A DNA stretch of 8,449 bases from the IMG/VR virus record IMGVR_UViG_2617270967_000016, positions 1-8,449 of that record; one strand, given 5' to 3'. Below are positions 1-8,449 of this stretch, one piece after another (within the stretch, counting starts at the first letter, position 1; every line of letters begins with the position of its first letter). A program made the position numbers and the translations under genes. This stretch comes from a virus (taxonomy: Duplodnaviria; Heunggongvirae; Uroviricota; Caudoviricetes). The notes under the pieces were generated by a model that saw only the letters and a program-made list of their open reading frames with translations, was not told where the DNA came from and made no database searches.

Positions 1-291
1 ATGGCTGATTTGAGAAAAGCAGCGCGTGGTCGGGAATGCCAGGTAAGAATCCCTGGCGTATGTAATGGCAACCCTGAAACGTCTGTACTGGCACATATCC
101 GGCTGACTGGATTGTGCGGCACCGGTACGAAACCGCCAGACCTGATTGCCACCATTGCATGTTCTGCCTGCCACGACGAAATCGACCGCCGCACGTATTT
201 TGTTGACGCTGGATATGCAAAAGAATGCGCGCTGGAAGGTATGGCGAGAACGCAGGTTATCTGGCTGAAAGAGGGGGTAATTAAGGCGTGA
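1..291 (+). CDS. ybcO: Cys-rich DUF1364-type putative nuclease (YbcO-like), nin-region protein
   Basis: Complete 96-aa ORF starting at ATG 1; sequence recalled as near-identical to DLP12 YbcO ([19 protein letters not shown]...); CxxC-type Cys clusters; stop overlaps the next start. Confidence 0.8.
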
Positions 292-650
292 ATACTTACC
301 ACATCACACTACCCTGGCCGCCGAGCAATAACCGCTACTACCGCCATAATCGAGGGCGCACGCACATCAGCGCAGAAGGGCAGGCATACCGCGATAACGT
401 CGCCCGAATCATTAAAGGCTCAATGCTGGATATCGGTCTGGCTATGCCTGTGAAAATCCGCATTGAGTGCCACATGCCGGATCGCCGTCGCCGTGACCTG
501 GATAATCTGCAAAAAGCCGCTTTTGACGCACTCACTAAAGCAGGTTTCTGGCTGGATGATGAGCTGGTCGTTGATTACCGCGTTGTGAAGATGCCTGTTA
601 CCAAAGGTGGGAAGCTGGAACTGACCATCACTGAACTGGGAGATGAATGA
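288..650 (+). CDS. rusA: Holliday junction resolvase RusA
   Basis: 120-aa ORF with GTG start overlapping the ybcO stop (GTGA); sequence recalled as RusA ([17 protein letters not shown]...[35 protein letters not shown]); expected position after ybcO. Confidence 0.88.
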
Positions 651-787
651 TGTTTGAGTCTTATATGGCAGAACGTCTTCGCCGCCGCTGGGTGCGCCTG
701 CGCTTATATCGTTTCCCCGGTTCTGTTTTGACCGATTACCGAATACTGAAGAGTTACGCCAAAACCCTGACAGGAGCAGGAGTATGA
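647..787 (+). CDS. ylcG: small nin-region protein YlcG-like (46 aa)
   Basis: ATGATG start overlapping the rusA stop (ATGA); translation [46 protein letters not shown] resembles DLP12 YlcG; too short for the ORF track. Confidence 0.55.
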
Positions 788-872
788 AGTCAGAGATAAC
801 AATCAACTAATACTGTTTTGTTGATTTTTGCTTGTAATTGGCGTTCTGGTCTGATTTTTGTGGAGTAAGTTG

Positions 873-1253
873 ATGCGTGATATTCAGATGGTTCTTGAGC
901 GTTGGGGAGCGTGGGCTGCAAGTGGTAACACCGGGGTGGACTATTCTCCGATCGCTGCCGGATTCAAAGGACTTTTACCATCTGCCACTAAACCACGTCC
1001 GGCCTGCTGCGATGATGACGGACTTATCATTGAAAACTGTCTTGCTCGTCTGAAGCAGAAAAAACCTGAGGAGTATTCGCTTCTCATTGCTCATTATTTG
1101 TTGCGAATATCAAAAAGACAGATAGCCAGGACGAGAAAGAAAAGCGAAAAAGCAATACGAATTGAGATGCAGATAGCCGAAGGGTTTATTGACGGATGTT
1201 TGTCTGTGCTGGGGGTAAGACTGGAGATGGACGACTGGCTGCTAAAAAAGTAA
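873..1253 (+). CDS. late-gene antiterminator Q (QuuD-like family)
   Basis: ATG at 873 preceded by GGAG at 862-865; N-terminus MRDIQMVLERWGAWAA... matches recalled Q/QuuD-type antiterminators; sits between nin genes and a strong terminator. The track start at 858 is a TTG extension. Confidence 0.8.
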   Translation: MRDIQMVLERWGAWAASGNTGVDYSPIAAGFKGLLPSATKPRPACCDDDGLIIENCLARLKQKKPEEYSLLIAHYLLRISKRQIARTRKKSEKAIRIEMQIAEGFIDGCLSVLGVRLEMDDWLLKK

Positions 1254-1322
1254 AAAATGATTAGTGCGGTCCGCAAAAAGTATGTCAGTATGTTAAGAGT
1301 GGTTACTTCGCCACACAGCTTA
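1254..1322 (+). promoter_or_regulatory. expected location of late promoter PR' and qut site
   Basis: By lambdoid architecture PR'/qut lie between the Q stop and tR'; I could not pick convincing -35/-10 hexamers, so this is positional only. Confidence 0.3.
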
Positions 1323-1347
1323 AACCCGCCGCGAGCGGGTTTTTTTA
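1323..1347 (+). terminator. rho-independent terminator (tR'-like)
   Basis: GC-rich hairpin cccgccgcgagcggg (1324-1339) followed by T7 (1340-1346). Confidence 0.6.
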
Positions 1348-1468
1348 TGGCTGAAATCGGTCCAGTACAGTAAACGTGCTGGTGGCGGTGAATACCTGTC
1401 TTTCAGCTTGCTGGCTTTTTCGACAAGAGTTATTGGTGTGTCACGTTAACCGGAAAAGGGAAAAAGAC

Positions 1469-1666
1469 ATGCTAAAACAGCAGGATATGACAGAAACCGC
1501 CAGAGTGGTGTTTAATGAATTAAGCGTTAACGACCCGGCGACAGTCGGGGAGATTGCGCAGAATACTTACCTTTCACGCGAACGCTGCCAGTTAATACTG
1601 ACCCAGCTGGTTATGGCGGGTCTGGCAGACTATCAGTTCGGTTGTTACAGACGCCTTCCGCAGTGA
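1469..1666 (+). CDS. small winged-helix protein, PapI/FaeA-like (65 aa), function unknown
   Basis: ATG 1469 with AAGGGA about 7 nt upstream; ...TVGEIAQNTYLSRERCQLILTQLVMAGLADY resembles the recognition helix/wing pattern of PapI/FaeA regulators (from memory); stop lies inside a terminator hairpin. Confidence 0.5.
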   Translation: MLKQQDMTETARVVFNELSVNDPATVGEIAQNTYLSRERCQLILTQLVMAGLADYQFGCYRRLPQ

Positions 1667-1680
1667 AGGCTTTTTTATTT
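1653..1680 (+). terminator. rho-independent terminator after the small wHTH ORF
   Basis: Stem gccttc (1653-1658) / gaaggc (1665-1670), 6-nt loop, then TTTTTTATTT (1671-1680). Confidence 0.5.
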
Positions 1681-1693
1681 GTGGTAAATGGGC

Positions 1694-1724
1694 GGCTGGT
1701 GGGTGTTAGGGGCACCCACCAGCC
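1694..1724. repeat. perfect 12-bp inverted repeat (hairpin or palindromic binding site)
   Basis: ggctggtgggtg (1694-1705), loop ttagggg, cacccaccagcc (1713-1724); no following T-tract, so not a classic terminator. Confidence 0.5.
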
Positions 1725-1816
1725 ATCTGCTCATGCGTTGGGTTCACAAGCAAACCTCAGGCCCACTGCTTTGCGCAAAAGCAGAATGAGCCTATCAGAG
1801 ACAGGCTTAATGTTCC

Positions 1817-2866
1817 ATGCTTAATACTGTAAAAATATCCAGTTGTGAGTTAATCAACGCCGACTGCCTGGAATTTATCCGGTCGTTACCCGAAAATTCT
1901 GTTGACCTGATAGTCACGGACCCGCCGTACTTTAAAGTGAAGCCTGAGGGCTGGGATAACCAGTGGAAGGGCGACGATGATTACCTGAAGTGGCTGGAGC
2001 AGTGTCTGGCGCAGTTCTGGCGGGGGCTGAAACCTGCCGGAAGTCTTTACCTGTTCTGTGGTCATCGCCTGGCATCTGATATCGAAATCATGATGCGTGA
2101 ACGCTTCAGTGTGCTGAACCATATTATCTGGGCGAAGCCGTCCGGACGCTGGAACGGATGCAACAAGGAAAGCCTGCGGGCGTATTCCCCCGCCACAGAG
2201 CGCATTCTGTTCGCGGAACATTATCAGGGGCCGTACCGCCCGAAAGATGATGGCTATGAGGCGAAGGGCAGGGTACTGAAACAGCATGTGATGGCCCCGC
2301 TGATTGCTTACTTTCGTGATGCGCGAGCTGCCCTGGGGATAACGGCAAAACAGATTGCAGATGCCACAGGAAAGAAAAACATGGTGTCGCACTGGTTCAG
2401 TGCCAGTCAGTGGCAGCTACCGAACGAAAGCGATTATCTGAAATTACAGTCGCTGTTTGCCCGGGTGGCAGAAGAGAAACATCAGCGCGGTGAACTGGAA
2501 AAGCCCCACCACCAGCTGGTGGATACGTATACGTCACTGAACCGGCAGTATGTGGAGCTGCATAGTGAATATAAGCATCTGCGGCGGTATTTTGGTGTGA
2601 CGGCGCAGGTGCCGTACACGGATGTGTGGACACATAAACCGGTGCAGTTCTATCCCGGGAAACATCCGTGCGAAAAACCGGCAGAAATGCTGCAGCAGAT
2701 AATCAGCGCGAGCAGTCGTCCGGGTGACCTGGTTGCAGATTTTTTTATGGGCTCAGGTTCAACGGTAAAAGCGGCACTGGCGCTCGGGCGTCGTGCGATT
2801 GGCGTTGAACTGGAGACCGGACGTTTTGAGCAGACAGTCAGGGAAGTTCAGGATTTAATCGTTTGA
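1817..2866 (+). CDS. orphan beta-class DNA amino-methyltransferase (N6-adenine or N4-cytosine)
   Basis: 349-aa ORF; motif IV DPPY near the N-terminus (LIVTDPPYF) and motif I FxGxG near the C-terminus (DFFMGSGST), the beta-class order; no adjacent restriction endonuclease ORF. Confidence 0.85.
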   Translation: MLNTVKISSCELINADCLEFIRSLPENSVDLIVTDPPYFKVKPEGWDNQWKGDDDYLKWLEQCLAQFWRGLKPAGSLYLFCGHRLASDIEIMMRERFSVLNHIIWAKPSGRWNGCNKESLRAYSPATERILFAEHYQGPYRPKDDGYEAKGRVLKQHVMAPLIAYFRDARAALGITAKQIADATGKKNMVSHWFSASQWQLPNESDYLKLQSLFARVAEEKHQRGELEKPHHQLVDTYTSLNRQYVELHSEYKHLRRYFGVTAQVPYTDVWTHKPVQFYPGKHPCEKPAEMLQQIISASSRPGDLVADFFMGSGSTVKAALALGRRAIGVELETGRFEQTVREVQDLIV

Positions 2867-2878
2867 AACGGATGAGAT

Positions 2879-2907
2879 TGCAGAATTAATTACGCACCAT
2901 TATTATT
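2879..2907 (+). promoter_or_regulatory. candidate sigma70 promoter for the tRNA cluster
   Basis: -35 TTGCAG (2879-2884), 17-bp spacer, -10 TATTAT (2902-2907); predicted start falls within a few nt of the first tRNA 5' end. Confidence 0.4.
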
Positions 2908-2915
2908 CTGCTCCC

Positions 2916-2991
2916 GGCCCTTTAGCTCAGTGGTGAGAGCGAGCGACTCATAATCGCCAGGTCGCTGGTTCAAATCCAGCAAGGGCCACCA
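2916..2991 (+). tRNA. ileZ: tRNA-Ile2 (anticodon CAU; would score as Met by anticodon alone)
   Basis: 76-nt cloverleaf: acceptor GGCCCTT/AAGGGCC, D-arm GCTC...GAGC, anticodon loop CTCATAA, T-loop TTCAAAT, encoded CCA; resembles E. coli ileX and Stx-phage ileZ. Confidence 0.8.
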
Positions 2992-2998
2992 TCACATA

Positions 2999-3075
2999 CC
3001 GCCATTAGCTCATCAGGAAAGAGCGCCAGCCTTCGAAGCTGGTTGCGCGGAGTTCGGGTCCCCGAAGGCGGTTCA
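2999..3075 (+). tRNA. argN: tRNA-Arg (UCG)-like, degenerate (possible pseudo-tRNA)
   Basis: D-arm GCTC/GAGC and anticodon arm CCAGC-CTTCGAA-GCTGG fold well, but the acceptor and T stems each carry a mismatch, the T-loop is TTCGGGT (no A58), and the 3' end is TCA not CCA. Confidence 0.45.
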
Positions 3076-3088
3076 TTATCTGTATCCT

Positions 3089-3165
3089 GCGTTGTTAGCT
3101 CAGCCGGACAGAGCAATTGCCTTCTAAGCAATCGGTCACTGGTTCGAATCCAGTACAACGCGCCA
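3089..3165 (+). tRNA. argO: tRNA-Arg (anticodon UCU, reads AGA/AGG)
   Basis: 77-nt cloverleaf: acceptor GCGTTGT/ACAACGC, anticodon arm ATTGC-CTTCTAA-GCAAT, T-arm ACTGG-TTCGAAT-CCAGT, discriminator G, encoded CCA. Confidence 0.8.
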
Positions 3166-3179
3166 CACTTATTTTCCCT

Positions 3180-3205
3180 GGCTCGCTTTTGCGGGCCTTT
3201 TTTTT
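3180..3205 (+). terminator. rho-independent terminator after the tRNA cluster
   Basis: Stem ggctcgc (3180-3186) / gcgggcc (3191-3197) with one G-U pair, loop tttt, then T8 (3198-3205). Confidence 0.6.
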
Positions 3206-3402
3206 AAATGTCTCACAATTCAGACGGTTGACAGTTGTCTGTTTTGCGGGGAGTTTGTTAAAAGAAACTGGCATGGTGAATCCCCCTGTGCGGAGGGGCA
3301 ATCAGCGAGTAGGTATATGGGATAATCGCGGATTCAGGTGCTGGTACTGAATTCACCGGGAGGCACCCGGCACCATGCAATGGCACATAGCGCCACTCTC
3401 CA

Positions 3403-3426
3403 GCCCCTCTCCGGAGGGGCTTTCTT
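3403..3426 (+). terminator. rho-independent terminator-like hairpin
   Basis: gcccctc (3403-3409), loop tccg, gaggggc (3414-3420), then TTTCTT. Confidence 0.45.
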
Positions 3427-3430
3427 ATGG

Positions 3431-3460
3431 ACAAAAAAGCCCGCGCAGGGAGACGCGGGC
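3431..3460 (-). terminator. minus-strand terminator-like hairpin (convergent with 3403-3426)
   Basis: gcccgcg (3439-3445) / cgcgggc (3454-3460), 8-nt loop; A6 at 3433-3438 on + gives a U-tract after the hairpin on the minus strand. Confidence 0.4.
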
Positions 3461-3653
3461 GGCAAGGAATAAACAACAAAACGTGAAGTAATATTTCAGC
3501 TGGCGAATAATATCCGACAGTAATCACTCTGCGCAATAGTGCGGCCTTTTTCGTATTGCGGGCTGTTGTCTCTCTTCTGCCATTGTCCTGTAACTTCCGG
3601 ACTTCAGCCCGCTCCTCATTTTACTCACAATATTATCCCGGCCGGGAGGATTC

Positions 3654-3947
3654 ATGGCATTTAAACACTATGATGTTGTCAGGGCGGCGTCGCCGTCAGA
3701 CCTTGCGGAAAAGCTGACACACAAACTGAAAGAGGGCTGGCAGCCATATGGCGGACCGGTTGCCATTACGCCGTACACACTGATGCAGGCGGTGGCTATT
3801 GAAGGAGATCCACAGGTCGGCCCTTCATCTGAGCCGGACTGGTTCTACGTGGTTGTGCTTGCCGGACAGTCCAACGGCATGGCCTACGGTGAAGGGCTTC
3901 CGTTATGGCTGCATTCAGGATGCGGACGCACAGCGCGAAGGTATTAA
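3654..3947 (+). pseudogene. 5' fragment of a NanS-p-like sialate O-acetylesterase (N-terminal domain plus start of SGNH/SASA domain); homology ends near 3902
   Basis: ATG 3654 with GGGAGG RBS; about 70-aa N-terminal domain then VVVLAGQSNGMAYGEG, a block-I GQSN motif; the ORF then reads out of frame through capsid-gene sequence to a stop at 3947. Confidence 0.55.
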
Positions 3948-4077
3948 CGCCTCTGCCCGCTACCCGAAAAACTGGGTGACCACCGGCGATCCGGCGCGTG
4001 AGTTCACCATGATTCAGTCAGCACCGCTGATGCTGCTGGCTGATCCTGATGCGTTCGTGTCCGTACAACTGGCGTAA
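3901..4077 (+). pseudogene. E: 3' remnant of major capsid protein gene E (last 57 codons)
   Basis: Translation YGCIQDADAQREGINASARYPKNWVTTGDPAREFTMIQSAPLMLLADPDAFVSVQLA matches the recalled lambda gpE C-terminus almost exactly; no upstream E sequence; different frame from the esterase fragment. Confidence 0.8.
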
Positions 4078-4079
4078 TC

Positions 4080-4106
4080 ATGGCCCTTCGGGGCCATTTT
4101 CTCTCT
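4080..4106 (+). promoter_or_regulatory. stem-loop with UUCG tetraloop and U-rich tail between the E remnant and FI
   Basis: atggccc (4080-4086), loop ttcg, gggccat (4091-4097), then TTTCTCTCT; likely mRNA-stabilising or partial-terminator structure. Confidence 0.35.
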
Positions 4107-4118
4107 GTGGAGGAGTCC

Positions 4119-4514
4119 ATGACGAAAGATGAACTGATTGCCCGTCTTCAGGTGCTGGGTGAGCAACTGAACCGTGATGTCAGCCTGACGGGGACGAAAG
4201 AAGAACTGGTGCTCCGTGTGGCAGAGCTGGAAGAGGAGCTTGATGACACGGATGACGCTGCCGGTCAGGACACATCTGTCAGCCCGGAAAATGCGCTGAC
4301 CGGACATGAAAATGAGGTGGTATCAGCGCAGCCGGATACCGTGATTGATACGGCTGCTCTGGTCACGGTCGTGGCACTGGTGACGCTGCATACTGATGCA
4401 CTTCACGCCACGCGGGATGACACTGTGGCATTTGTGCTGCCGGGAACGGCGTTCCGTGTCTCTGCCGGTGTGGCAGCTGAAATGACAGAGCGCGGCCTGG
4501 CCAGAATGCAATAA
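4119..4514 (+). CDS. FI: DNA-packaging protein FI
   Basis: ATG 4119 after GGAGGAG; MTKDELIARLQVLGEQLNRDVSLTGTKEEL...VAAEMTERGLARMQ matches recalled lambda gpFI over its whole length. The track start at 4080 is an upstream extension. Confidence 0.88.
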   Translation: MTKDELIARLQVLGEQLNRDVSLTGTKEELVLRVAELEEELDDTDDAAGQDTSVSPENALTGHENEVVSAQPDTVIDTAALVTVVALVTLHTDALHATRDDTVAFVLPGTAFRVSAGVAAEMTERGLARMQ

Positions 4515-4525
4515 CGGGAGGCGCT

Positions 4526-4996
4526 GTGGCTGATTTCGATAACCTGTTCGATGCTGCCATTGCCCGCGCCGATGAAACGATACGCGGGTACATGGGAACG
4601 TCAGCCACCATGACATCCGGTGAGCAGTCCGGCGCAGTAATACGTGGTGTTTTTGATGACCCTGAAAATATCAGCTATGCCGGACAGGGCGTGCGCGTTG
4701 AAGGCTCCAGCCCGTCCCTGTTTGTCCGGACTGATGATGTGCGGCAACTGCGGCGTGGAGACACGCTGACCATCGGTGAGGAAAACTTCTGGATAGACCG
4801 GGTTTCGCCGGATGATGGTGGAAGCTGTTATCTCTGGCTCAACCGTGGGCAACCACGGGGATTTACAACGATTTGGCCGCCGCCTCAGCCTGTATGTGAA
4901 CACGGCAGCGGAAGCCATTCGCGCCCTGTCGATGCAGATGCCGGGCTTTCGCCTTCAGATGAACGAAGGCTGGTACCAGATACGTATTGCCGGTGA
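4526..4996 (+). CDS. FII: head-tail joining protein FII with its C-terminus replaced by read-through into the I region (disrupted)
   Basis: GGGAGG RBS; first about 105 aa match recalled lambda gpFII (MADFDNLFDAAIARADETIRGYMGTSAT...SPDDGGSC.LWL); after about 4850 the frame continues out of frame through I-homologous DNA to 4996. Confidence 0.7.
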   Translation: MADFDNLFDAAIARADETIRGYMGTSATMTSGEQSGAVIRGVFDDPENISYAGQGVRVEGSSPSLFVRTDDVRQLRRGDTLTIGEENFWIDRVSPDDGGSCYLWLNRGQPRGFTTIWPPPQPVCEHGSGSHSRPVDADAGLSPSDERRLVPDTYCR

Positions 4997-5477
4997 AGAC
5001 ACGGCACCGGAGGTGGTGTACGCCCGCCTTCACGAACAGCTGGGTGAGGGAACGGTCATCCACATTGTGCCGCGACTGGCCGGGGCCGGAAAGGGTGGAC
5101 TGCAGATTGTGTTGGGGGCGGCAGCCATCGTGGGCTCTTTCTTCACGGCCGGAGGCTCGATGGCGTTATGGGGTACAGCCCTGAGTGCCGGTGGTTTTTC
5201 TGCCACCACGATGCTGTTTTCACTGGGTGCCAGCATGATACTGGGCGGTGTGGCCCAGATGCTGGCCCCGAAGGCAAAAACACCGGATTACCGCGCAACG
5301 GATAACGGCAGACAGAACACGTACTTTTCCTCGCTGGATAACATGATTGCCCAGGGGAACCCGATGCCGGTGCCTTACGGGGAAATGCTGGTTGGCTCCC
5401 GCCGTATATCCCAGGACATCAGCACCCGTGATGAAGGCGGGGGCGGAAAGGTCGTGGTTATCGGGCGGCAGGGGTAA
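4812..5477 (+). CDS. I: tail assembly protein I, native N-terminus missing (first 16 codons derived from FII DNA)
   Basis: From GDLQRFGRR onward matches recalled lambda gpI to the C-terminus (…NTYFSSLDNM.AQGN…YGEM.VGSR…VVVIGR); the in-frame ATG at 4812 lies in FII sequence. Confidence 0.78.
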   Translation: MMVEAVISGSTVGNHGDLQRFGRRLSLYVNTAAEAIRALSMQMPGFRLQMNEGWYQIRIAGEDTAPEVVYARLHEQLGEGTVIHIVPRLAGAGKGGLQIVLGAAAIVGSFFTAGGSMALWGTALSAGGFSATTMLFSLGASMILGGVAQMLAPKAKTPDYRATDNGRQNTYFSSLDNMIAQGNPMPVPYGEMLVGSRRISQDISTRDEGGGGKVVVIGRQG

Positions 5478-5482
5478 AAAGA

Positions 5483-5581
5483 ATAAAAAAATCCCGCAGT
5501 GATCGCGGACAGGAACTGCGGGAGAGTTACGAAGATTAAGTGTAAGGAATTATTCTTATATCACGACAAAAAAATTAACGC
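5483..5581 (-). ncRNA. candidate small RNA (about 100 nt) between I and J
   Basis: Delimited on the minus strand by a near-consensus promoter (5588-5615) and a hairpin plus U-tract terminator (5486-5520); no start-codon-initiated ORF inside; this intergenic block is absent between I and J in lambda. Confidence 0.3.
5486..5520 (-). terminator. minus-strand rho-independent terminator
   Basis: tcccgcag (5491-5498) / ctgcggga (5513-5520), 14-nt loop; on the minus strand followed by ATTTTTTTATTCTTTTT. Confidence 0.45.
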
Positions 5582-5587
5582 AGAGAA

Positions 5588-5615
5588 ATTATACGCGCCA
5601 CGGTCAGTTTGTGAA
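5588..5615 (-). promoter_or_regulatory. sigma70-type promoter on the minus strand
   Basis: Minus-strand -35 TTCACA (+ coords 5610-5615), 16-bp spacer, -10 TATAAT (+ coords 5588-5593, perfect); AT-rich upstream; predicted start near 5581. Confidence 0.45.
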
Positions 5616-5690
5616 AATGTGAAGATATTCAGAATTTTTATGCCATTACCGGTTTTAACCAACAGGATTATCGGTGGGCATGAAAGAAAA

Positions 5691-5723
5691 CCCCGGTATC
5701 TGCTGATACCGGGGTTTCTCTTT
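5691..5723. terminator. bidirectional rho-independent terminator
   Basis: Perfect 10-bp stem ccccggtatc (5691-5700) / gataccgggg (5705-5714), loop tgct; TTTCTCTTT downstream and GAAAGAAAA upstream. Confidence 0.6.
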
Positions 5724-5820
5724 AGCATGGCAGAAATGTGTTTCATGCTTTTCGGGCGAAGGATATCCGACTTCTGTACGGAATGGCAAGTGGCGGTTAA
5801 TTTATTCAGGGGAAGGCTGT

Positions 5821-6621
5821 ATGGGAAAAGGTGGCGGTAAGGCACACACGCCTCGTGAGGCGAAAGACAATCTCAAATCCACGCAGATGATGAGCGTGAT
5901 TGATGCGATTGGTGAGGGACCGATAGAAGGCCCGGTGAAAAGCCTGCAGAGTATTCTGGTGAACAAAACCCCGCTGACGGACACGGACGGTAATCCCGTG
6001 ATACACGGTGTGACCGCGGTCTGGCGTGCCGGGGAGCAGGAGCAGACACCACCGGAAGGCTTTGAGTCCTCCGGCTCTGAAACTGTACTGGGTGTCGAAG
6101 TGACCAGGGCAAAACCGGTAACACGCACCATTACGTCAGCGAACATTGACCGCCTGCGGGTGACCTTCGGGGTGCAGTCACTGGTGGAGACCACGTCAAA
6201 GGGTGACCGTAATCCGTCCTCTGTCCGTCTGCTGATTCAGTTACAGCGTAACGGTAACTGGGTGACAGAAAAGGATGTCACCATTAACGGCAAGACCACC
6301 TCACAGTTCCTGGCCTCGGTGATTCTGGATAATCTGCCTCCCCGCCCCTTTAACATCCGGATGGTCAGGGAGACGGCGGACAGCACCACGGACCAGCTGC
6401 AGAACAGAACGCTGTGGTCGTCATACACCGAAATCATCGATGTGAAACAGTGCTACCCGAACACGGCCATTGTGGGGATGCAGGTGGATGCGGAGCAGTT
6501 TGGTGGTCAGCAGATGACGGTGAACTACCATAGCCAGGTAACACAGAGTTATGACAGCCCGCCGGTTCTGGTGGGCTTTTTTGTGGGGGGAATATGTCAG
6601 TACAGATTTCAGGTGTGCTGA
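5821..6621 (+). pseudogene. J: tail tip/host-specificity protein J, N-terminal about 238 codons only
   Basis: RBS AGGGGAAGG; MGKGGGKAHTPREAKDNLKSTQ...PPRPFNIRM...TLWSSYTEIIDVKQCYPNTA matches the recalled lambda gpJ N-terminus; homology ends near 6533 and the ORF stops at 6621; full J is over 1100 aa. Confidence 0.8.
6557..6582 (+). terminator. terminator-like hairpin immediately upstream of the stf start
   Basis: gcccgcc (6557-6563) / ggtgggc (6570-6576) with one G-U pair, loop ggttct, then T6 (6577-6582). Confidence 0.4.
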
Positions 6622-7832
6622 AGGATGGTACAGGAAAACCGGTACCGGACTGCACCATAGAGCTGAAAGCCACGCGAACGAGTGAGACGGTGATAGTCAC
6701 CACGGTGGCAGAGCACCAGCCAGGCGAAACGGGCAGTTACAGCATGCAGGTTGAGCCGGGGCGTTATCGTGTGACCTTGTGCGTGGAAGGTCGTCAGCCG
6801 GCATGCGCCGGCGAGATTGATGTCATGGCCGACGACGAACCGGGCACCCTGAATGCCTTTCTGCTCCGTGAAACGGATGCAGCGTATTATCCTGATGCAC
6901 TGAAGAAGCTGGAAGCGGCGGCGGATGAGGCTGTGCGCAGGGCGCGAGAAGCTGCTGAGAAAGCCGAAACTGCCGTGGGGCCACAGGGACTGAAAGGCGA
7001 CACCGGAGCAACTGGTCCACAGGGACAGAAGGGGGACAAGGGCGATACAGGCCCGGCAGGGCCACCGGGGCCGAAAGGGGATAAAGGTGACAAGGGCGAT
7101 AAGGGGGATACAGGTCCGAAAGGTGAGCAGGGCGATCCGGGCGGACCACAGGGACCGAAGGGCGACAAGGGGGATACAGGCCCGGCAGGGCTTCAGGGGC
7201 CAAAAGGGGATACGGGAGCCGCAGGCCCGGCAGGGCCTCAGGGGCCAAAAGGGGATACGGGAGCCGCAGGTCAGGCAGGGCCTCAGGGGCCAAAAGGAGA
7301 TACGGGAGCCGCAGGTCCGGCAGGACCTCAGGGGCCAAAGGGAGATACGGGAGCTGCAGGCCCGGCAGGACCTCAGGGGCCAAAAGGAGATACGGGAGCC
7401 GCAGGTCCGGCAGGACCTCAGGGGCCAAAGGGAGATACGGGAGCTGCAGGCCCGGCAGGACCACAGGGGCCAAAAGGGGATACGGGAGCCGCAGGTCAGG
7501 CAGGGCCTCAGGGGCCAAAAGGAGATACGGGAGCCGCAGGTCCGGCAGGACCTCAGGGACCGTCAGGAAGTCCTGACAGCGGACTGTTTGGTGTCGGTTC
7601 TTTTGTCCTTGCGGCATATTATGCGACGAGTTATTCGGGGGATATGGCACCGGGCTCAGCCATTGCCGGCTCATCACTGTCTGCATGTTGCCTTTCGAAT
7701 GGTACTCCCCTGGTTGCTTCCGGTAATGTGGGGGAGACCCGTTTACCGGGCACGTGGCGTGCATGTGGTCCGATGCTATGGACATCATCTCCGGGTATCA
7801 GACAGGCAGGATTATTTCAGCGCATATCATAG
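6594..7832 (+). CDS. stf: side tail fibre protein with a collagen-like Gly-X-Y region
   Basis: 412-aa ORF; N-terminus [17 protein letters not shown] resembles recalled lambda Stf ([17 protein letters not shown]...); residues about 129-327 are uninterrupted Gly-X-Y triplets; 85-aa Cys-containing non-collagen C-terminus. Confidence 0.8.
7180..7560 (+). repeat. tandem array of a 45-bp unit (about 8 copies) encoding [15 protein letters not shown]
   Basis: Near-identical 45-bp units with only synonymous or single-residue variation (PAG/QAG); preceded by more degenerate [12 protein letters not shown] triplets from about 6978. Confidence 0.85.
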
Positions 7833-7840
7833 AGGAGGTC

Positions 7841-8449
7841 ATGGTGGATAAGGGAAAAGAGATTCTTGCAGTACGAAATGCAGCCAGCAACGAATATGGC
7901 GGGATAAACTGTGAGGTGCAGTTTGAAGACGCGGTGAATGAAAAAGGGGAACAGGTATGGCTGCCGTATACTGCAACGGAAACGGATAATACAGAACACG
8001 GAAAAGCATTGTGGTCTGGGCTGACAGCAGGAACGTACGGAAGCGTGAGTGCCTTTGTTGCCACGGAAGCAGTACTGGAAGCGGCAAAGGCGGCGAAACG
8101 GGAAGAGATTAATATCTGGCGTGATGTGCAGGAGAATATGGAATACGTGATGGAATTCAACGGAAGGAACTGGGATTACGGCAAGAAGACGTTGTCCAGG
8201 ATAAGCACGACACGCCTGATGGCAGAGAATAACCGTCTTCCGGAAGGTTTTGCCTGGACCGACGGGGATAATAATGTGGTGCCGGTGACGGCGGCGGAGA
8301 TAATTGCGCTGGCAGATGCGACAGAGCAGGCGATGTTTGCGAAGGGAGTGGAGATTAATACACGGCAGTTGCAGATGAAAGCCGAGGTTGAGGCGCTGAC
8401 AGACCTGAAGGCGATCCGCAGTTATGCTGTCGGATGGCCTGCTGGCTGA
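7841..8449 (+). CDS. putative tail-fibre-associated protein (assembly chaperone or distal fibre component), 202 aa
   Basis: ATG 7841 just after GAGGAGG (7832-7838) and 9 nt after the stf stop; stop TGA is the last codon of the window; function inferred from position only. The track start at 7754 overlaps stf. Confidence 0.55.
   Translation: MVDKGKEILAVRNAASNEYGGINCEVQFEDAVNEKGEQVWLPYTATETDNTEHGKALWSGLTAGTYGSVSAFVATEAVLEAAKAAKREEINIWRDVQENMEYVMEFNGRNWDYGKKTLSRISTTRLMAENNRLPEGFAWTDGDNNVVPVTAAEIIALADATEQAMFAKGVEINTRQLQMKAEVEALTDLKAIRSYAVGWPAG

Follow-up and report, generated by a model that had tools for sequence, protein, structure and literature searches.

A stretch of 8,449 nucleotides (nt) from the IMG/VR virus record IMGVR_UViG_2617270967_000016 (Caudoviricetes; positions 1 to 8,449 of that record), called the window here, carries a compact cassette in which an upstream DNA element, the gene of a small winged-helix (wH) protein, a leader RNA of ~130 nt and the gene of an adenine methyltransferase (MTase) of the M.EcoGII family follow one another in this order. 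Judged by sequence comparison, the wH gene, the palindrome that follows it and the MTase gene are one conserved functional unit, found from Escherichia to Plesiomonas and in N15-like phages, and the intergenic spacer is, by its compensatory changes, a conserved structured RNA. The palindrome is part of a conserved element that almost certainly regulates the MTase. The whole arrangement is best read as a late-gene cassette for anti-restriction with post-transcriptional gating of its toxic enzyme, a reading to which we assign a probability of about 55%. While the enzyme is already known, the leader RNA and its wH partner appear to be undescribed: literature searches found no description of the wH open reading frame (ORF) or of the leader, and neither is mentioned in the available portions of PMC5778455 or of the beta-class review PMC7544214. 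The cassette and its borders comprise the following features.

1322-1342, plus strand: intrinsic terminator 3' of the Q gene, marking the upstream boundary of the cassette (terminator scan and alignment of the upstream regions of 35 loci)
1407-1445, plus strand: conserved non-coding DNA element, made up of cTTGCTG (1407-1413), 12 nt, AGAGTTA (1426-1432) and TNNTGTGTCAC
1469-1666, plus strand: stand-alone winged-helix protein of 65 amino acids (aa), phrog_331 (function unknown in PHROGs)
1653-1677, plus strand: terminator-like hairpin, its loop holding the wH stop codon (1664-1666), and a U-run after it (terminator scan, hairpin 1653-1670)
1688-1734, plus strand: leader hairpin P1, with lower stem 1688-1693/1729-1734, upper stem 1694-1705/1713-1724 and internal loop 1725-1728
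1742-1815, plus strand: leader domain 2, with closing helix P2 (P2a, 1742-1746 with 1811-1815; P2b, 1748-1751 with 1805-1808), P3 (1759-1762 with 1790-1793, plus 1764-1765 with 1787-1788) and hairpin P4 (1766-1772 with 1778-1784)
1817-2866, plus strand: orphan beta-class N6-adenine DNA methyltransferase of the M.EcoGII family, 349 aa (PF01555 N6_N4_Mtase, E 2e-44)

One genome per species was scanned with the wH alignment, yielding 34 loci that range from Escherichia to Plesiomonas. The wH and MTase genes are adjacent in 32 of them, with MTase homologues 57-97% identical; of the two exceptions, one ends at a contig end and the other has its MTase deleted. The gap between the two genes is 134-153 nt in all measured loci but one, which has a truncated wH gene. 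In the reverse search, a wH ORF lies 154-189 nt upstream in all 74 MTase-selected viral contigs with enough upstream sequence, and the most remote detectable wH relative also precedes an MTase, 54% identical. A first-pass annotation, made from the letters of the window alone, had proposed that the small ORF, the palindrome and the MTase form an epigenetic module and had pointed to a synteny survey of other prophages; the co-conservation of the pair is borne out by these counts. The cassette is also independent of the Q allele. The downstream tRNAs were considered as a further part of it and rejected, since they lie 3' of the MTase in Escherichia loci only.

Decayed variants occur as well: one locus (L021, 3980-4308) retains a truncated wH gene and the RNA and has lost the MTase, one (L026) has a stop codon in the MTase, and two (L028 and L020) have a damaged wH gene with RNA and MTase intact. 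In several unrelated cassette phages, toxin-antitoxin pairs of the RelE/ParE, HicAB or MazEF type stand divergently just 5' of wH, at 10-608 in N15 (L120), 1-598 in phiKO2 (L121), 160-820 in P840 (L129) and 436-1043 in L119.

The payload is, by sequence identity, a known M.EcoGII-family promiscuous adenine methylase. The motif order of the window enzyme is that of the beta class, with DPPY at residues 35-38 and FMGSG at 310-314, PF01555 covering residues 29-340, and its sequence matches in the PDB are RsrI, CcrM, MboIIA and DpnA. The genes beside it are the small ORF and three tRNA genes, none of them for a nuclease, so that the orphan beta-class amino-methyltransferase of the first-pass annotation is upheld. 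The window enzyme is identical to M.EcoGII at 329 of 350 positions (~94%), the reference being taken from the supplement of PMC11551740, whose machine-read text has some errors, and to the enzyme of phage 1720a-02 at 329 of 348 (95%); that phage shares the arrangement of wH, leader and MTase, and its enzyme is called a very similar homologue in the available portions of Murray et al. 2018 (PMC5778455). The MTase-profile protein search listed relatives of at least 61% identity, and tblastn over phage records reached the family boundary. A separate observation concerns VHML orf17, a putative adenine methyltransferase in its record, which is a 49%-identical member of the MTase clade and carries the leader RNA (L123, 1298-1459).

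According to the available text of PMC5778455, M.EcoGII and M.EcoGI are non-specific adenine MTases from prophages of E. coli O104:H4 C227-11; M.EcoGII modifies adenine in DNA whatever the sequence context and, to a lesser extent, in RNA (in vitro), needs no partner for activity, does harm under constitutive expression and stays unexpressed in the lysogen. Among O111 Shiga toxin-producing E. coli, homologues with 92-94% similarity are listed as "nonspecific" in Table 3 of PMC6602927, with no detectable motif in growing lysogens. For the window MTase, direct checks cover the prophage setting and the lack of a neighbouring nuclease, whereas silence in lysogens is taken from the literature.

The wH ORF, reported as a 65-aa frame in the first pass, is a real coding gene, as its codon-position pattern demonstrates: substitutions between orthologues fall mostly at third codon positions (for example 7/5/35 at positions 1/2/3), and the comparison with Kluyvera gives 27 synonymous against 8 non-synonymous codon changes. 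An AlphaFold2 model built with 38 homologues predicts three helices (residues 4-16, 26-33 and 37-49) and a beta hairpin (53-62) at a mean pLDDT of 89.8, which is the three-helix bundle with a beta-hairpin wing of a winged-helix-turn-helix (wHTH) protein. The hidden Markov models (HMMs) of Pfam yield sub-threshold generic wHTH matches only (TrmB, 18.5 bits against a cutoff of 25.6; HTH_24; MarR_2). RefSeq names the protein either "TrmB family transcriptional regulator" or "hypothetical protein". The family has 85 members at E<=0.001 in 1.84 billion cluster representatives, all small and stand-alone save for one weak match to a 1264-aa protein. Two segments, helix 3 (RCQLILTQL) and the N-terminus (MLKQxDMT), are unchanged even in members with only 43% overall identity, and synonymous codons vary freely there, indicating that the constraint acts at the protein level.

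The first-pass annotation had labelled the same protein PapI/FaeA-like. PapI is a small winged-helix protein too, and the label fails on every comparison made: PF04703 does not come up for the window protein at either E<=1 or E<=10 and is missing from the 25 families that most of the 38 scanned family members match (E<=10), the family profile, run against PDB sequences at E<=10, finds no PapI chain, and the fold ranking shows no specific likeness to PapI. The structural neighbours that a fold search does return are, as the most alike, the DNA-binding domains of IclR, MarR and ArsR, and they include the RNA-hairpin-binding wH domains of SelB and Z-alpha domains; the top Foldseek matches are the wH dimerisation domains of S-adenosylmethionine (SAM)-dependent methyltransferases. 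The N15 protein gp51 is distantly related to wH (hhalign probability 69%, E 5e-5). The wH HMM has no match in the Vibrio and Aeromonas phages; the Vibrio phages have small ORFs 5' of the MTase with only the helix-3 and wing pattern in common with wH.

The leader contains a perfect 12-base-pair (bp) inverted repeat, GGCTGGTGGGTG / CACCCACCAGCC at 1694-1705 / 1713-1724, separated by a 7-nt spacer and forming the upper stem of P1. The palindrome seen in the first pass at 1694-1724 is thus present, and its chance expectation is ~0.004 (about 8449 positions multiplied by about 8 spacer lengths and divided by 4^12). The spacer between wH and MTase is highly conserved, with differences that are compensatory. 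In the P1 upper stem, 11 of 12 pairs change on both sides and 95% of cells are paired, and the same double changes affect all four pairs of P2b and four of the five of P2a. Independent minimum-free-energy folds of 27 sequences give, for most of them, the architecture of P1 followed by P2, P3 and P4.

Run on the raw MAFFT alignment, RNAalifold produced a poor consensus, as loop-length differences shift the register, and was replaced by a hand-drawn structure, a covariance model and re-alignment. The resulting model, R1, detects the leader in 37/37 first-round sources and in 9/11 remote phage loci. In the first-round model alignment, 95.9% of cells pair, compared with 25-45% in slid controls, and 12 pairs change on both sides; with the remote phages added, 94.1% of cells are paired against 25-45% in the slid controls, and 28 of 39 pairs change on both sides (119 cells). 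Covariation scores 0.34, where shuffles score 0.146, and none of 500 shuffles reaches any observed measure. Fitting the alignment to the model biases it towards the structure; even so, the slid controls, the separately computed folds and the full sequence turnover of P1 make the leader structure robust. Single-sequence folding cannot pick the strand (z -3.4 on plus, -4.2 on minus), whereas the excess of G-U over A-C cells (107 against 15) identifies the plus strand, sense to the MTase, as the folded one.

The leader motif also stands 5' of MTase homologues 49-60% identical in remote phages (E about 1e-5 to 1e-15), namely the telomere phages N15, phiKO2, PhiR46_1 and P840, the Vibrio phages VHML, VP58.5, Valp1 and ST2-1pr, and the Aeromonas phage PhAER-1. 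The sequence of the P1 stem is wholly different in N15, phiKO2, VHML and the Aeromonas phages, with the pairing kept and with many G-U pairs that form on the plus strand only, which argues for an RNA stem rather than a conserved protein operator. Rfam 15 holds no match for the leader (cmscan at E<=1 over the window, E<=10 on 1380-1840 and E<=0.1 on five remote loci), the sole hairpin match on it being the sub-threshold P26, at 24 bits against a gathering score of 36. A leader peptide read from an in-frame AUG at 1688 was also considered and rejected: the ORF has 33 codons here and only 7 in Salmonella-type copies, and hence is unconserved.

The relation of this RNA to the MTase start is close. 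In 38/43 loci, only 1-2 nt separate the end of the P2 3' strand from the MTase AUG (1 nt in the window), and no Shine-Dalgarno (SD) sequence is visible at the MTase start in the alignments, so that very little basal translation would be expected.

Upstream of the wH gene, conservation is of another kind. The block cTTGCTG-N12-AGAGTTAYNTGTRTG sits 25-60 nt 5' of the wH start in most loci, after the terminator, and is near-invariant across 26 loci with different Q antiterminators; a similar GCAGAGTTACAGTTTGTGTC is found upstream of N15 gene 50. RNAalifold finds no pairs in this element, which indicates that its sequence is conserved and not its structure, and as a region without predicted structure it serves as an internal control for the leader analysis. 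No sigma-70 promoter is called at 1407-1445 by consensus scan, the -10-like TATCTG lacking the final T. The element resembles a weak promoter with an extra conserved block and is a candidate promoter or operator for the wH gene. Terminators frame the gene on both sides. A terminator equivalent to 1322-1342 precedes the cassette in most related loci, and the terminator that the first pass had given to the small ORF is confirmed as a hairpin (1653-1670) with a T-run over the stop codon, whose covarying stems recur in all enteric loci, with a strong U-run in only 14 of 43.

Taken together, the cassette is best explained as a self-contained accessory unit, standing at the head of the late or lysis genes of temperate phages. 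During lytic growth, the enzyme would hypermethylate progeny phage DNA and thereby blunt restriction in the next host, a role that we infer and that fits the homologue of Yersinia phage P840 being dispensable for lysis and lysogeny (PMC10612081). The enzyme being harmful to the cell, the cassette appears to carry its own controls, with wH and the leader probably keeping the MTase silent before the lytic phase. The first would be the terminators before the cassette and after the wH gene; the second, the ~130-nt structured leader, in which P2 at the SD-less start codon would hold basal translation very low; and the third, wH itself as a trans-acting regulator. In the preferred version, wH would bind the leader RNA and permit translation of the MTase, as Com does for Mom in phage Mu; the target of wH and the direction of control (repression or activation) are both putative.

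Several findings weigh against the gating of the enzyme by wH and the leader. The wH protein is mostly acidic (isoelectric point about 4.4-6.5), which is unusual in a small nucleic-acid binder, and a search found no motif common to the upstream element and the leader. The remote locus L119 and phiO18P are without the leader motif, and the linkage of RNA and MTase is wider than detectable wH homology, so the RNA may work without wH. Occlusion of the start site is not universal either: three Vibrio/Aeromonas phages have about 134 nt between the RNA end and the MTase start, and in the VHML-type phages the RNA ends 11 nt before it, with AGGA in between, making five loci in which the RNA stops short. 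The window enzyme itself is some 20 positions off M.EcoGII, including V70G and F124S, so that its non-specificity is assumed from its relatives. Finally, the window prophage is a deletion remnant, and the cassette may therefore be inactive in this copy.

The rival that survives best, somewhat unlikely in our judgement, takes wH as an ordinary DNA-binding transcription factor, similar in role to a C protein, that autoregulates from 1407-1445 or uses the P1 palindrome as its operator, the leader acting independently, for example in mRNA stability or processing. The fold nearest to IclR, MarR and ArsR domains and the TrmB-family name in RefSeq agree with such a role, as do the conserved unstructured DNA element 5' of the wH start, present in N15 also, and the position of the wH gene in N15 and phiKO2, outside the annotated late transcription unit that holds the RNA and the MTase. 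As an operator, however, P1 is a poor candidate: its sequence turns over while wH helix 3 is invariant in the core family, which makes a sequence-specific site there unlikely, and its G-U pairs break the DNA symmetry of the palindrome. The acidity of wH counts against DNA binding as well, no dyad symmetry is established in the upstream element, and the element shares no sequence with the leader.

A more far-reaching proposal, which we consider doubtful, is that the leader represents a new class of cis-regulatory RNA for promiscuous phage adenine MTases, acting as a sensor that is bound by wH helix 3, or that is bound or N6-methylated by the enzyme (an "m6A switch"). If it were true, the cassette would deliver a self-limiting burst of a genome-wide methylase during lytic growth only.

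A related explanation, improbable in our estimate, makes the leader an autogenous operator: the MTase, taken as an enzyme that acts on RNA and single-stranded DNA by binding and methylation, would bind or methylate its own leader and limit its own synthesis, with wH serving, for example, as a protein partner of the enzyme. Such control would account for the RNA being linked to the MTase more widely than wH detectably is, as in VHML, VP58.5, Valp1, ST2-1pr and PhAER-1. An acidic wH protein suits protein binding, and its top Foldseek matches lie in methyltransferases; the RNA methylation by M.EcoGII in vitro, given in the available text of PMC5778455, agrees with it too. Against this stand the activity of M.EcoGII without a partner, described in the same text (PMC5778455), the absence of a known precedent for an M.EcoGII-type enzyme, and the small Vibrio phage ORFs with their wH-like helix-3 and wing pattern, which suggest that wH may have diverged there past detection.

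Read as DNA, the palindrome could instead be an inverted pair of Chi sites that shields replicating phage DNA from RecBCD, a reading that was rejected as highly improbable. Both repeat arms contain GCTGGTGG, and five Chi sites (GCTGGTGG) occur in the window against 0.56 expected, all within 1378-2522. In the versions from Proteus, some Providencia, Plesiomonas, N15, phiKO2, VHML and Aeromonas, however, the stem has lost Chi and kept its pairing, and related prophage loci carry 7-14 Chi per 8 kb, a density throughout these loci that is not specific to the hairpin or the cassette. The five sites lie at 1378, 1695, 1716 (minus strand), 2509 (minus strand) and 2515, two of them in the P1 arms and two forming a 14-bp palindrome, CCACCAGCTGGTGG, inside the MTase coding sequence.

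The model of the first-pass annotation, a PapI-family co-regulator acting with Lrp on a methylation-set, heritable ON/OFF switch, is left with almost no credit and was rejected: the size of the small winged-helix protein, the co-conservation of ORF and MTase and the single GATC that consensus leader copies carry beside the MTase start speak for it, but FaeA/PapI similarity is absent by HMM, profile and fold ranking, the palindrome is an RNA stem of unconserved sequence, the setting is a phage late region with no fimbrial or phase-variable operon, and the enzyme belongs to the non-specific M.EcoGII family, silent in lysogens. What stands of the proposed regulatory module is the conserved unit with its regulatory element; the heritable switch through PapI, Lrp and Dam does not, and neither does the contention that the module serves something other than plain anti-restriction methylation. 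Since M.EcoGII methylates adenine in any context, as described in the available portions of PMC5778455, there is no target motif whose state could be read, and since M.EcoGI, M.EcoGII and their 92-94% homologues give no detectable methylation in lysogens (PMC5778455, available portions; PMC6602927), no heritable state is set there. In place of paired GATC and Lrp sites at a phase-variable operon, the context is Q, terminator, cassette and tRNAs, and the stretch 954-3806, which covers the cassette and the tRNAs, holds no GATC and hence no Dam site in the module. GATC is strongly depleted in the window as a whole, with 8 sites against 29 +/- 5 expected from shuffles.

The window represents the junction in the late region of a lambdoid prophage of the Shiga-toxin type, and its remaining features are these.

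1-291: YbcO (Pfam)
288-650: RusA (Pfam)
858-1253: antiterminator Q (Pfam)
2916-3165: three tRNA genes
3654-3947: DUF1737 fragment
4080-4514: packaging protein FI
4526-4996: head-tail attachment protein
4812-5477: tail assembly I
5821-6621: J fragment
6594-7832: collagen-repeat tail fibre
After the tail fibre, within 3654-8449: DUF4376 protein

A query of 1254-3300, tRNAs included, finds a match in 3504 of the 5426 complete E. coli genomes (in 1757, the match covers at least 80% of the query) and in 311 phage records, mostly Stx2-converting phages with stx after the tRNAs. In these relatives, the cassette lies 3' of Q and its terminator and 5' of the tRNAs, stx and the lysis genes. A 99%-identical relative (L001) runs on into lysis and terminase genes, while the window jumps to fragments of head-completion and tail genes, and, unlike L001, no stx, lysis, terminase or capsid gene is found at 3654-8449.

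The cassette of the window may itself be decaying, given two local changes. The 3' strand of P2 (1811-1815) reads UGUUC where the consensus is UGAUC, leaving P2a with two mismatches and a weaker helix, and the substitutions V70G and F124S set the enzyme apart from M.EcoGII and from most homologues alike. Among the genes that follow, ARAGORN names the tRNA at 2916-2991 tRNA-Met (CAT), whereas RefSeq calls it tRNA-Ile in relatives, of the ileZ type that is read after lysidine modification. Additionally, Rfam STnc100 (RF02076) matches at full length at 3242-3432 on the plus strand (139 bits against a gathering score of 47), just 3' of the three tRNA genes and a terminator at 3180-3197.

M.EcoGII finds wide use as a reagent, methylation-footprinting being one example, and is a model for the loss of MTase sequence specificity, and on how its natural hosts tolerate and time it, the available portions of the original paper note only that it is switched off in lysogens (PMC5778455). 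The wH protein and the covarying RNA would supply concrete control elements, spread across lambdoid, N15-like and VHML-like phages of Enterobacterales, Vibrio and Aeromonas, and in many Shiga-toxin phages the cassette stands directly 5' of stx. The result also corrects the epigenetic-switch reading, which was attractive but wrong.

Among known systems, M.EcoGII and M.EcoGI are the nearest counterparts of the payload, being like the window enzyme prophage-borne orphans of 349 aa and of the beta class (DPPY, then FxGxG), about 94% identical to it, with about 20 substitutions in the window copy (among them V70G and F124S). The PapI/FaeA systems with Lrp and Dam (pap, fae) resemble the cassette in having a small winged helix of similar size and a regulator tied to adenine methylation; they differ in that wH has no detectable family link to PapI/FaeA, and the cassette has neither a GATC pair nor a fimbrial operon and its MTase no target motif. 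The controller (C) proteins of type II restriction-modification systems, like wH, are small DNA-binding-type proteins encoded just 5' of a modification or restriction gene, and they time modification and restriction after entry into a new host. They are, however, Xre-type helix-turn-helix proteins that bind C-boxes, whereas the cassette has no nuclease, another fold and a structured RNA between regulator and enzyme.

The N15 and phiKO2 genes 50-51-52 are distant relatives of the cassette itself. Their gp52 is an MTase 56-60% identical to the window enzyme, gp51 is the distant wH relative, the same leader RNA lies between an annotated terminator and gp52, and a CAGAGTTAC element stands 5' of gene 50; the MTase region comes after an annotated late promoter and terminator and before the holin gene. 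These phages differ in the extra gene gp50, in the annotated late promoter and terminator that separate the wH gene from the RNA, and in wH helix 3, which reads TEFIIEQM instead of RCQLILTQL.

The closest parallel in logic is com-mom of phage Mu, in which the small, upstream-encoded Com opens an mRNA stem and so allows translation of the toxic adenine-modifying Mom, for late anti-restriction. Gene order and logic are alike, with a protein of ~62-65 aa encoded just upstream and the start region of the enzyme held in a stem; in the cassette, an mRNA helix reaches the enzyme start region in 38/43 loci and does not in five Vibrio/Aeromonas loci. The parts are unrelated, with no homology between the two systems anywhere: Com is a zinc-finger RNA binder, whereas the cassette protein, a predicted winged helix, has only 1-4 Cys, Mom does not belong with the SAM methyltransferases of the M.EcoGII family, and Mu additionally uses Dam/OxyR and the C activator. 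For the cassette, the mechanism is a proposed one, and the likeness is one of analogy. If the gating model is true, the cassette would constitute a second strategy of the com-mom type, built from unrelated parts, with a bearing on how phage DNA escapes restriction as it passes between hosts.

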